DNA of 2,363 nucleotides from a phage: sequence record PZ049727.1, one strand, 5' to 3'. The notes beneath the pieces were generated by a model. That model saw only the letters and a list, made by a program, of their open reading frames with translations. It was not told the origin of the DNA and made no database searches. This document shows positions 3 through 2,363 of this stretch, in pieces. Every line of letters starts with the position of its first letter. Positions within the stretch are counted from its first letter, which is position 1. The position numbers and the translations under genes were made by a program.

Positions 3-251
3 TGGGCGGACTACCAGCTGTTCGGCAAGACCTTCTTCGACACCCTGGACTACCTCACCACCAATTGGTTGATGCCGCTGGGCGGGCTGGGCACGGTGCT
101 GTTCACCGGCTGGGTGCTGCAGCGTCACGTGGTCAGCGAGGCCATCGGCATTCGCAACGCCGGGCTGTTCCAGGCCTGGTGGAAGCTGCTGCGCTACGGC
201 ACGCCGGTGGCTATCGTGCTGGTATTCCTCAACCTGCTCGGGCTGATCTAG
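3..251 (+). CDS. C-terminal fragment of an integral membrane protein, probably a secondary transporter (sodium-dependent/NSS-like family is a best guess); 5' end lies outside the window
   Basis: Frame 3 is open from the window edge to TAG at 249-251. Translation ...WADYQLFGKTFFDTLDYLTTNWLMPLGGLGTVLFTGWVLQRHVVSEAIGIRNAGLFQAWWKLLRYGTPVAIVLVFLNLLGLI* is hydrophobic and TM-like with strong G/C third-position bias. The listed ORF 69..251 is the Met-initiated tail of this frame. The overlapping frame-2 ORF 2..439 is Arg/Ala/Gly-rich and reads through the terminators, so it is taken as spurious. Family assignment is from memory of sequence character only. Confidence 0.6.
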   Translation, partial: WADYQLFGKTFFDTLDYLTTNWLMPLGGLGTVLFTGWVLQRHVVSEAIGIRNAGLFQAWWKLLRYGTPVAIVLVFLNLLGLI

Positions 252-282
252 CGCGACCTGCGGTCGTCCGTGCAGAACGCGC

Positions 283-300
283 CGGTGGGCTGAAGCCCAC
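283..300 (+). repeat. GC-rich hairpin without T-tract (GGTGGGC-tgaa-GCCCAC), a near copy of the terminator hairpin at 383-400
   Basis: Stem 284-289 (GTGGGC) is the reverse complement of 294-299 (GCCCAC), with loop tgaa 290-293. It is followed by ggtacaagg, not a T run. It shares the GGTGGGCT / AGCCCAC core with 383-400. Confidence 0.4.
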
Positions 301-316
301 GGTACAAGGACGCTGC

Positions 317-338
317 GGGCTTCTCAGGAAGCCCTTTT
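317..338 (+). terminator. Rho-independent terminator-like hairpin plus T4, probable terminator of the upstream transporter gene
   Basis: Perfect 7-bp stem GGGCTTC (317-323) / GAAGCCC (328-334), loop tcag (324-327), then TTTT (335-338). It lies 66 nt downstream of the stop codon at 249-251, on the same strand. Confidence 0.55.
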
Positions 339-382
339 GGTGGGCTCAGGTCCATCCATCGAGGCCGACGCCGGCCTTGGTG

Positions 383-406
383 GGTGGGCTTCAGCCCACC
401 TTTTTT
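383..406 (+). terminator. Rho-independent terminator-like hairpin plus T6; probable DNA target structure of the group IIC intron inserted 3 nt downstream
   Basis: Perfect 7-bp stem GGTGGGC (383-389) / GCCCACC (394-400), loop ttca (390-393), then TTTTTT (401-406). The intron 5' end GTGCG starts at 410. Class C group II introns are known to home downstream of intrinsic terminator stem-loops. Confidence 0.7.
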
Positions 407-409
407 ATG

Positions 410-740
410 GTGCGCCAGGCATGGCGCGTAGCGCCGTGACTGGCGCTGTCGGGTTCACTGTGGTGGTGAGCCTGGCGACTTGGAGGTGAAAGTCCTCTAC
501 ACACCCGGCAAGGGGAAGTGTTAGCTGAAGGCAAGGGTGTCGCGGGCGACTGCGAATCTGAAGGAAGCCCGAGGCAAAATGCTGGCCTGACGAACAGGAA
601 GCGGATGAGGCGGCGCAGCGGGGTGAGGTGGCCATAATCGCCAAAGCCCGATACTTGCACGGAACGCTGCGACGTAGATCCGACAGGCATAAGCAGGAAG
701 GTCGCGCGAATTACCCTGGGAGATCTGTACGCTTGCCATT
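410..740 (+). ncRNA. Group II intron ribozyme 5' portion (domains I-III), non-coding
   Basis: About 330 nt between the 5' splice site and the RT ORF. It contains GC-rich helical segments and the motif GGCAAGGGTGTCGCGGGCGACTGCGAATCTGAAGGAAGCCCGAGGCAAAA (about 529-578). From memory, this closely resembles conserved domain I sequence of known class C introns such as the Oceanobacillus iheyensis intron. The domain limits were not folded and the 3' limit here is arbitrary (ORF start). Confidence 0.6.
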
Positions 741-2261
741 GTGCTACCGATTGTCGAGAGGCGACGGGATGGGCGTGCAGAAGTCAGCCGAGGCCGTAGT
801 AAGTGGCGGTCAACCACGCCATCAAGGGCCGAACAGGTCATGCCGCCAGTAGGCGTCAGCGTCTCGTCGATAACCGAAATGCAGAAATTTCTCCAAGAGA
901 AGACTGTCACCCCGAGTCCCGGCCAGAGGCCGAGGATGACGCCTGACAGCGCAGAGGTATCGACGGCGTCGGTGACGTGGACGAACGCGGAGCCGGACAC
1001 GCTGATGGAGCGGGTGCTTGCACCGGCGAATCTCAAGCGTGCGTATCAGCGCGTGGTCAGCAACAAGGGGGCGCCGGGTGCCGATGGCATGACGGTCGCC
1101 GACTTGGCAGGCTACGTGAAACAGTATTGGCCCATCCTGAAGGTCAGGCTGCTGGCAGGTGAATACCATCCCCAGGCAGTGCGGGCGGTCGAAATTCCCA
1201 AACCGCAGGGCGGTATGCGGCAACTGGGCATTCCCAGTGTCGTGGATCGCCTGATCCAGCAAGCCCTGCTGCAACAGCTCACGCCGATCTTCGATCCGCT
1301 GTTCTCGGACTATAGCTACGGCTTCCGTCCGGGCAGAAGCGCTCACCAGGCTGTCGAGATGGCCCGCACCCATGTGGCGGCGGGTCATAGGTGTTGCGTG
1401 GAACTCGATCTGGAGAAGTTCTTTGATCGGGTCAACCACGACATCCTGATGTTCTGTGTTGAGCGCCATGTCGAAGACAAACAGGTGCTCAGACTCATCC
1501 GCCGTTACCTCGAAGCGGGCGTCATGTCGGGCGGGGTTGTCAGCCATCGGCAGGAGGGGGCGCCGCAAGGCGGCCCGCTTTCGCCGCTGCTATCGAACAT
1601 CCTGCTCGATGAACTCGACCGTGAGTTGGAGCGGCGAGGCCATCGCTTCGTGCGCTATGCCGATGACGCGAACATTTATGTCCGTAGTCCGCGTGCTGGC
1701 GAACGAGTGCTGGCCAGTGTCGAGCGGTTCCTGAATCACCGTCTGAAACTGAGACTGAATCGGGACAAGAGTCGCGTGGCTGGGTCGTGGAAATGCGACT
1801 ACCTGGGGTATGGGATGAGTTGGCACTCGCAGCCTAGACTGCGAGTGGCAACCATGAGCCTGCGCCGTGTGCGCGACCGTCTCAGGGAACTGCTGCGAGG
1901 GGTGCGGGGCCACAAGATGGCGAATGTCATCGAGCGGGTAAACCCGGTGCTGCGAGGCTGGGCAGGCTACTTCAAGCTCAGCCAGAGCAAGCGTCCACTG
2001 GAAGAGCTGGATGGCTGGGTCAGGCACAAACTTCGCTGTGTCATCTGGCGGCAATGGAAGCAGCCCTCTACGAGGGCGCGCAACCTGATGCGCCTGGGAT
2101 TGAGCGAGGAGCGTGCCTGCAAGTCGGCCTTCAATGGCCGAGGCCCGTGGTGGAACTCAGGAGCGCCGCATGTGAATCAGGCGCTGCCGAAGAAGCTATG
2201 GGACAGACTTGGACTGGTCTCGATACTGGATACGATCAATCGGCTTAACCGCATGGCCTGA
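741..2261 (+). CDS. Group II intron-encoded reverse transcriptase/maturase (RT domain plus domain X, no DNA endonuclease domain); true start codon probably internal to this maximal ORF
   Basis: 506-aa maximal ORF from GTG 741 to TGA 2259-2261. Recognisable motifs are RT0 LMERVLAPANLKRAYQRVVSNKGAPGADGMT (from 1002), RT1-2 VEIPKPQGGMRQLGIPSVVDRLIQQA...YGFRPGRSAHQAV, RT3-4 LDLEKFFDRVNHDIL, RT5 GAPQGGPLSPLLSNILLDELD...FVRYADDANIYV (YADD at 1656-1667), RT6-7 LKLRLNRDKSRV, and domain X/maturase RGWAGYFK (1953-1976) followed by RHKLRCVIWRQWK. No Cys-rich or HNH motifs occur C-terminal to domain X. The N-terminal ~65 codons are Arg-rich and low-complexity and probably overlap ribozyme RNA. Candidate real starts are ATG 840, ATG 879, ATG 936 (preceded by AGAGG at 925-929, 6-nt spacer) and ATG 1005. 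Confidence 0.93.
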   Translation: MLPIVERRRDGRAEVSRGRSKWRSTTPSRAEQVMPPVGVSVSSITEMQKFLQEKTVTPSPGQRPRMTPDSAEVSTASVTWTNAEPDTLMERVLAPANLKRAYQRVVSNKGAPGADGMTVADLAGYVKQYWPILKVRLLAGEYHPQAVRAVEIPKPQGGMRQLGIPSVVDRLIQQALLQQLTPIFDPLFSDYSYGFRPGRSAHQAVEMARTHVAAGHRCCVELDLEKFFDRVNHDILMFCVERHVEDKQVLRLIRRYLEAGVMSGGVVSHRQEGAPQGGPLSPLLSNILLDELDRELERRGHRFVRYADDANIYVRSPRAGERVLASVERFLNHRLKLRLNRDKSRVAGSWKCDYLGYGMSWHSQPRLRVATMSLRRVRDRLRELLRGVRGHKMANVIERVNPVLRGWAGYFKLSQSKRPLEELDGWVRHKLRCVIWRQWKQPSTRARNLMRLGLSEERACKSAFNGRGPWWNSGAPHVNQALPKKLWDRLGLVSILDTINRLNRMA

Positions 2262-2262
2262 A

Positions 2263-2292
2263 CCGCCGTGTACGGAACCGTACGCACGGTGG
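2263..2292 (+). ncRNA. Group II intron domain V (catalytic hairpin)
   Basis: The lower stem pairs CCGCC (2263-2267) with GGTGG (2288-2292), including one G-U pair, and contains a CGC triad at 2264-2266. A 2-nt AC bulge sits at 2286-2287 on the 3' strand. The upper stem pairs GTGTACG (2268-2274) with CGTACGC (2279-2285), with loop GAAC (2275-2278). This is the canonical domain V architecture: about 14 bp, a 2-nt bulge and a triad near the base. It starts 2 nt after the RT stop codon. Confidence 0.8.
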
Positions 2293-2294
2293 TG

Positions 2295-2332
2295 TGGGAG
2301 GACGGCGGCCGTGAGGCCGCCTCCTACCCGAT
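2295..2332 (+). ncRNA. Group II intron domain VI with bulged branch-point adenosine, and 3' end of intron
   Basis: Distal stem GGCGGCC (2304-2310) / GGCCGCC (2315-2321) with GNRA-type loop GTGA (2311-2314). Proximal stem GGGAGGA (2296-2302) pairs with TCCT (2322-2325) and CCC (2327-2329), leaving A2326 bulged, which is the expected branch-point geometry. The intron is inferred to end 6-7 nt later, at ...GAT (2332). Confidence 0.65.
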
Positions 2333-2363
2333 CGCGACGCCATTGCGCCAGACGACATGTGCG

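Follow-up and report, generated by a model that had tools for sequence, protein, structure and literature searches.

The sequence record PZ049727.1, from a phage, holds a stretch of 2,363 nucleotides (hereafter the window) in which the gap between a stop codon and a group II intron is crowded with look-alike hairpins. This locus raises the question of what these hairpins are and whether they had a part in the choice of the site by the intron. A first-pass annotation, made from the letters alone, had offered tandem terminators, a family of repeated extragenic palindromes, or scars of duplicated intron target sites as explanations. We consider it very probable that the related hairpins represent a decayed cluster of repeated extragenic palindromes (REPs), the last copy of which is terminator-like, and that a group II intron of class C (IIC) inserted there by the shape of the hairpin, the REP identity of the site being incidental.

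The spacer and its hairpins

The window is G+C-rich and opens within the 3' end of a gene, the homologues of which share 79-99% identity with the upstream fragment and are annotated as sodium-dependent transporters or NSS symporters. The 82-amino acid fragment alone gave no Pfam or NCBIfam match; the SNF domain (PF00209) is carried by neighbouring gene fragments in orthologous loci. In all assemblies seen, gene calling splits the transporter gene into two or three fragments that overlap (L007 5069-6312, with 321 and 103 amino acids; L009 5085-6288; L010 4910-6312). The explanation is either decay to a pseudogene in this lineage or frameshift errors in all of these MAG and long-read assemblies. 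[quoted passage not shown] With Rfam (E <= 1), only the intron domains were matched, and no RNA family was seen in 252-409. The features of the locus are collected in Table 1.

Table 1 Features of the window, with positions counted from its first letter
Feature	Positions	Strand	Remarks
NSS/SNF sodium-dependent transporter gene, 3' end	3..251	+	TAG stop at 249-251; identified by named homologues
REP copy a, inverted (iREP), GGTGGGCTGAAGCCCACGGTAC	284..305	-	2 mismatches to the 22-nt consensus; tag GTAC for GTAG
Hairpin GGGCTTC-TCAG-GAAGCCC (7 bp), then TTTT	317..338	+	Terminator-like; not a clear REP copy
REP copy b, inverted (iREP), decayed, GGTGGGCTCAGGTCCATCCATC	339..360	-	6/22 mismatches; 5' arm of the long hairpin
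Long hairpin of the inverted REP pair b + c (REPIN/BIME-like)	339..400	+	Shares its last base with the short stem
Linker inside the inverted REP pair, 18 nt	361..378	.	Small GC palindrome; top of the long hairpin
REP copy c, direct, GGTGGGTGGGCTTCAGCCCACC	379..400	+	Tag GGTG for GTAG, which accounts for both of the 2 mismatches
TTTTTTATG, T-run of the terminator-like motif	401..409	+	Last 5 nt, UUAUG (405-409), are IBS1
Group II intron with class C (IIC) features	410..2332	+	Rfam domains I-IV and V-VI; ends from L007
EBS1 CAUAA, hairpin loop of domain I	633..637	+	Pairs with IBS1 UUAUG or UUGUG
Intron-encoded protein (IEP), 473 aa, RT + maturase (X)	840..2261	+	Start codon as annotated for ltrA in NZ_ON248939.1
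3' exon, host intergenic spacer resumed	2333..2363 (31 nt)	+	Aligns with L007 6470-6500, right after the 5' exon

The octamer GGTGGGCT occurs at 284-291, 339-346 and 383-390 on the plus strand and at 393-400 on the minus strand. The repeats noticed in the first-pass annotation are therefore real, and its site at 283-290 has to be moved by one base. Three local stems can be drawn: GTGGGCT/AGCCCAC (285-291/294-300), GGGCTTC/GAAGCCC (317-323/328-334) and GGTGGGCT/AGCCCACC (383-390/393-400). Their predicted RNA energies are -14.4 kcal/mol for copy a, -13.1 kcal/mol for the hairpin at 317-334 and -15.1 kcal/mol for the 8-bp stem of copy c. The second and third stems are followed by a T4 (335-338) and a T6 (401-406), and the three stems and both T-tracts are as had been described. 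An alternative pairing of 339-346 with 393-400, also foreseen from the letters, lies inside the predicted optimum, in which 339-367 pairs with 372-400 in a hairpin of 28 pairs (-55.4 kcal/mol, z = -9.3). The arms of this long hairpin are 29 nt each and 79% complementary as DNA.

Repetition of this kind might be expected by chance where DNA is rich in G+C, as the window is, and we assign next to no probability to this explanation. GGTGGGCT was observed four times in the window versus 0.14 expected, a count that was not attained in any of 200 shuffles. A published REP of 22 nt, GTAGGGTGGGCTTCAGCCCACC, is matched twice in the window with at most 2 mismatches versus 0.00 expected, and the spacer folds far better than its shuffled versions (z = -7.7).

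Alleles without the intron reveal the order of events. The MAG contig L007 represents the empty site exactly, in that 6064-6469 corresponds to window positions 3-409 and 6470-6500 corresponds to 2333-2363, so that both intron ends are fixed exactly at 410 and 2332. Two further intron-less loci, L008 and L010, are more diverged; the gene is kept there at 96-98% identity and the spacer differs. All hairpins of the window are present in L007, and the hairpins are thus older than the insertion of the intron. The idea that past insertions and losses of the intron left them behind as scars or duplications is suggested by the position of the repeats directly upstream of the intron, and fails on this evidence: intron-less L007 has every hairpin, and the intron-less L008 and L010 have perfect REPs. 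Moreover, the hairpins at 16 other insertion sites of this intron, described below, are single. Group II retrohoming is not known to leave a target-site duplication, which also counts against scars, and we give this explanation scarcely any credence.

REP copies and their relatives

REPs are defined as palindromes preceded by GTAG that occur in clusters and in alternating orientation, as in BIMEs; the tetranucleotide 5' of the palindrome is conserved and is usually GTAG (PMC8266576, PMC3733652). Such elements measure 20-50 nt, are imperfect palindromes that can fold into a stem-loop, and are scattered in many copies, for the most part between genes. GTAGGGTGGGCTTCAGCCCACC is printed in Table 1 of Nunvar et al. 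2010 as the RAYT-flanking REP of Haemophilus influenzae Rd (PMC2817692), and does not occur as text in the supplementary files of Di Nocera et al. (2013). Hairpin copies a, b and c of the window are, to judge by their sequences, worn copies of this GTAG-tagged REP. Stems of 7-8 bp with loops of 2-4 nt are found at 285-300 and 383-400, and the iREP at 339-360 is joined to the REP at 379-400 by a linker of 18 nt in one predicted RNA hairpin of 28 pairs, which is the arrangement of a BIME or REPIN. The tag of copy b reads GATG, and the L007 version of this copy has 5 mismatches.

Since none of the three copies in the window has an intact GTAG, their membership in the family rests on similarity and on intact orthologues in the sister lineage. 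L008 has a perfect iREP at the position of copy a, and both L008 and L010 have a perfect GTAGGGTGGGCTTCAGCCCACC at the position of copy c. Overall, the spacer of L008 and L010 contains GGTGGGCTGAAGCCCACCCTAC, GGTGGGCCGAAGCCCACTCTAA and GTAGGGTGGGCTTCAGCCCACC. Two perfect 22-mers and one copy with 3 mismatches were counted there; in L008, GTAGGGTGGGCTTCAGCCCACC is followed by a T8. In the approximately 12 kb of flanks of each orthologous locus, the REP motif was found only in this spacer. The GTAG tag has been described as essential or important for the activity of TnpA-REP (PMC8266576), and with all of their tags mutated the copies in the window are probably inert relics.

The family is widespread. 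An exact scan for the 18-nt core GGTGGGCTTCAGCCCACC in one reference genome per species (596 Gb, both strands) found at least 120 stretches versus approximately 17 expected by chance (596 Gb on both strands divided by 4^18). Among the matches listed, GTAG stands directly 5' of the core in 141 of 173 usable copies, and GCAG or ATAG in another 14; at least 35 close inverted pairs of exact core copies lie less than 150 nt apart. Among these matches, core copies are many in Pseudomonas, Stutzerimonas and Ectopseudomonas, and genomes such as those of P. lopnurensis, P. kuykendallii and S. stutzeri contain several stretches each. Further carriers, by record title, are Frateuria, Luteimonas, Rhodanobacteraceae, Lysobacteraceae, Acetobacteraceae, Betaproteobacteria, Tepidisphaerales and Haemophilus. 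In distant genomes (L011-L130) the REP is mostly present as the full 22-mer GTAGGGTGGGCTTCAGCCCACC. Lone, untagged matches to the 18-mer core, for example in Thermoanaerobaculia, Vulcanococcus and a cyanobacterial MAG, may be due to chance. A MAG of 'Candidatus Sulfomarinibacteraceae' (L019 5733-6242) contains five exact core copies with a regular period of 123 nt and nearly identical flanks; this array is a tandemly amplified unit that contains the REP.

S. stutzeri TS44 (L067 3060-3584) and a Pseudomonas MAG (L078 433-957) have genes of 174 amino acids that lie between copies of this REP. Both proteins score 192-200 bits on NF047646, the model of the REP-associated tyrosine transposase (cutoff 80), and the S. 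stutzeri protein matches the TnpA-REP structure PDB 4ER8 at 1e-52. Relaxed REP matches are found on both sides of both RAYT genes, and in S. stutzeri the exact 22-mer is present on both sides. This association holds for the REP family and not for the host of the window, and the window has no RAYT gene. The suggestion of a repeated extragenic palindrome family is thereby borne out, as the core of the hairpins extends to a published GTAG REP that many genomes contain in abundance and that is found at the flanks of RAYT genes. REPs are usually held to be species- or genus-specific. The breadth of this 22-nt REP, which crosses phyla, therefore suggests either horizontal spread of the REP together with its transposase, or a strong recognition or convergent constraint.

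The hairpin at 317-334 stands apart, and is a separate terminator-like stem that is not accounted for by the REP family. It is identical in L007, and its equivalent in L008, which keeps the position and most of the stem sequence, reads GGCTTC-GTTC-GAAGTC followed by CCTTT. The 18-mer of this hairpin, GGGCTTCTCAGGAAGCCC, was sought in all fetched loci and was found only in the orthologue L007. It might be a REP core with an insertion of 6 nt, or belong to a second class of REP. The L008 counterpart (1040-1062) has GTAG 5' of it (GTAGGCTTCGTTCGAAGTCC), and may represent a GTAG-tagged palindrome of a second kind and not a simple terminator.

Terminator prediction had been proposed as a check on the hairpins, and a consensus scan flagged 317-334 and 382-401 as terminator-like. 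Both have the anatomy of terminators, with a T4 after 317-334 and a T6 after 382-401, on the coding strand and 3' of the stop at 249-251. L008 keeps the long hairpin and its T8 (about 1050-1145) despite a different interior sequence. The RNA of the plus strand folds more stably than its complement in the window (-55.4 vs -37.8 kcal/mol) and in L008 (-60.0 vs -44.8 kcal/mol). Every non-Watson-Crick position of the long REP-pair hairpin is a G.U on the plus strand and would be an A.C on the complement. This asymmetry would be in keeping with selection at the level of the RNA and not of the DNA hairpin, or could be the outcome of a mutation bias instead. REP and BIME elements are reported to attenuate transcription or to stabilise the 3' ends of mRNAs. 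We infer that the REP stems, and above all the terminal stem and its U6, may act as a Rho-independent terminator and as a 3'-end protector of the transporter mRNA.

The hairpins could be plain tandem intrinsic terminators that evolved or were duplicated locally, with no dispersed repeat family involved. This would explain why two structures are flagged as terminator-like and why the copies lie within 120 nt of each other, but copy a lacks a T-run, two of the copies are inverted with their tags on the opposite strand, and the same 18-22 nt recur in a great number of genomes, together with a conserved GTAG and at the flanks of RAYT genes. As an account of origin this reading is contradicted by the genome-wide distribution and we regard it as improbable; as an account of function it still holds. 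The earlier proposal of tandem terminators accordingly stands in part: there are two motifs of hairpin and T-run, and the last one is the terminator-type target of the intron, but its origin is a REP.

The intron and its target

The intron has the features of class C. Its IEP matches only RVT_1 and GIIM in Pfam (408 bits on TIGR04416) and has no endonuclease (En) domain. In domain V, the window has CCGC opposite the GAGC of the Rfam consensus at 2263-2266, that is, CGC in place of the AGC triad, which is a hallmark of IIC introns (PMC1702495). The ribozyme is small, with 501 nt outside the ORF (410-839 and 2262-2332). The EBS1 loop and the end of the 5' exon covary in six variants: CAUAA/UUAUG, CCAAA/UUUGG (twice), CAAAA/UUUUG, GCAA/UUGC and AAC/GUU. 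This covariation across intron variants confirms the assignment of EBS1 and IBS1, the pairing of which is short (3-5 bp). The hairpin sits at the usual position of IBS2. A paper on a groEL intron (PMC12584367) treats a IIB1 intron and is not relevant here.

Introns of class IIC insert after intrinsic terminators, and structure counts more than sequence; the target consists of the terminator stem-loop and an IBS1 of 3-4 bp, with relaxed sequence specificity (PMC4424553, PMC7306698, PMC1702495). The presence of three hairpins ahead of an intron, which had been called unusual, is thus no surprise, since REPs as a rule occur in clusters and class C introns as a rule lie behind terminator hairpins. 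We compared the window with 10 further loci that encode an identical IEP (7 of them in CP025149.2) and with six plasmid relatives (DNA identity of 85.6-99.8% within the matched stretch). Each of the 17 copies, including that of the window, lies directly after a G+C-rich hairpin and a T-run. At the 16 other sites, the hairpin sequences are all different and lie downstream of unrelated genes, the products of which include, by Pfam, S1-domain, cold-shock-domain and FUR-family proteins and malate synthase. The 5' exon ends in T6-7 and (A/G)TG in each of the 12 close copies (window, L131-L140 and L001, the last with 99.8% DNA identity). Since the 16 other copies follow unrelated terminators, the target of this intron is the shape of a terminator with UU(A/G)UG, and not the REP sequence.

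The opposite view, in which the intron family targets this REP, so that REP copies would be dispersed homing sites and the cluster a preferred landing zone, draws on the distance of 9 nt between the intron and a REP copy, and on P. putida KT2440, where 2 of 9 group II intron copies are REP-associated (PMC1525189). We consider it very improbable, because no REP with up to 5 mismatches was found in the flanks of the 16 other intron copies, which follow unrelated hairpins. Among the matches listed, a T-rich stretch follows the core in only 3 of 173 REP copies, and no intron start was found in the 40-nt flanks of the REP copies. In the sister lineage, the REP of L008 has a T8 but TCG in place of (A/G)TG, and no intron is present. 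As the REP rarely has a T-run and the L008 copy is free of the intron, the REP in the window would have been used for its terminator look and its fitting IBS1, and not for its identity as a REP. A search of genomes for the motif and for intron copies beside it had also been proposed: the motif is indeed repeated elsewhere, but the other intron copies adjoin hairpins of the same shape with unrelated sequence.

The mechanism we favour, in which a terminator-seeking intron met a worn REP, can be pictured as follows. REPs of the type GTAGGGTGGGCTTCAGCCCACC are spread by RAYT/TnpA-REP acting on a single-stranded hairpin and its GTAG tag, and the spacer 3' of the transporter gene contains a small BIME-like cluster of two inverted REPs and one direct REP, all decayed, with the presumably unrelated terminator-like hairpin at 317-334 and its T4 among them. 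In the plus-strand transcript, copy c could fold as a stem of 8 bp, or with copy b as a stem of 28 pairs; either predicted stem ends at base 400 and would be followed by U6. A IIC intron picks its DNA target by a terminator stem-loop and a short pairing of IBS1 with EBS1. Because the last REP copy and its T-run look like a terminator, the site would have been chosen by such an intron, which would have entered 9 nt past the stem, after UUAUG (405-409) paired to EBS1 CAUAA (633-637). The needs of the intron would then be a stem-loop, a T-run and (A/G)TG, with the REP identity incidental.

Several observations concern the spread of the intron itself. The chromosome CP025149.2 has at least 7 copies that encode the identical 473-amino acid IEP (L132-L138), and an intron with 99.8% identity is carried by the P. 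aeruginosa KPC plasmid p30Pae2-KPC (L001, NZ_ON248939.1 12829-14761). The chromosomal and plasmid copies point to recent proliferation and to movement between the chromosome and resistance plasmids. In pHD6515-VIM (L005 3074-3134, NZ_CP079828.1), the RT gene of a second group II intron starts approximately 540 nt past the end of the first intron, so that the two introns are near neighbours.

Meaning and comparison with known systems

At this site two unrelated systems of mobile DNA meet, as a REP-derived hairpin can apparently be taken for a terminator by a IIC intron. For annotation, the value lies in the explanation of look-alike hairpins as REPs, in fixed intron boundaries and in the identification of EBS1 and IBS1; beyond annotation, the importance is little. 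A more general idea is that REPs or REPINs that gain a T-run and (A/G)TG become functional terminators and landing pads for IIC introns. We hold this to be rather unlikely, although it deserves mention: if true, REPs spread by RAYTs would steadily make targets for IIC retroelements, and REP-derived terminators would enlarge the pool of IIC targets. The REP family, its link with RAYTs, the clustering as BIMEs or REPINs and the targeting of terminators by IIC introns have all been published already. Both behaviours being known, the finding is an ordinary one. Target sites of bacterial class C introns were reportedly treated by Robart, Seo and Zimmerly in 2007.

Compared to the GTAG REPs, BIMEs and REPINs and their RAYTs (Nunvar et al. 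2010, PMC2817692), the window has an identical palindromic core of 18 nt and two copies with at most 2 mismatches. Its copies are intergenic, clustered and alternating in orientation, with perfect tagged orthologues in a sister lineage. Unlike in that system, the tags in the window are mutated (GTAC, GATG and GGTG), one stem is decayed and no RAYT is present in the window. Rho-independent terminators share with the last hairpin a G+C-rich stem, a loop of 4 nt, a T6 directly after the stem (T4 in the case of 317-334), and a position 3' of the stop on the coding strand; structure and T-run are kept in a diverged lineage. However, the stem in the window, here predicted from sequence, can reach 28 pairs, five of them G.U, and is then far longer than in typical terminators.

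Mobile elements associated with REPs in Pseudomonas (Tobes and Pareja 2006, PMC1525189) offer another parallel, since here too a mobile element adjoins a REP. The insertion sequences of that study target REPs specifically, with an association of up to 100% (PMC1525189), whereas the association of the intron with the REP looks incidental, at one of the 17 sites examined. The locus also resembles the targets of IIC introns (Toor et al. 2006, PMC1702495). The stem-loop in the window differs from these in being a REP copy rather than a gene-specific terminator, and the IBS1-EBS1 pairing reaches 5 bp versus the 3-4 bp described. In the other respects compared, the locus is alike: the intron lies a few nucleotides past a terminator stem-loop, has no En domain, carries CGC in domain V and a short IBS1-EBS1 pairing, and is present in many copies after different terminators.
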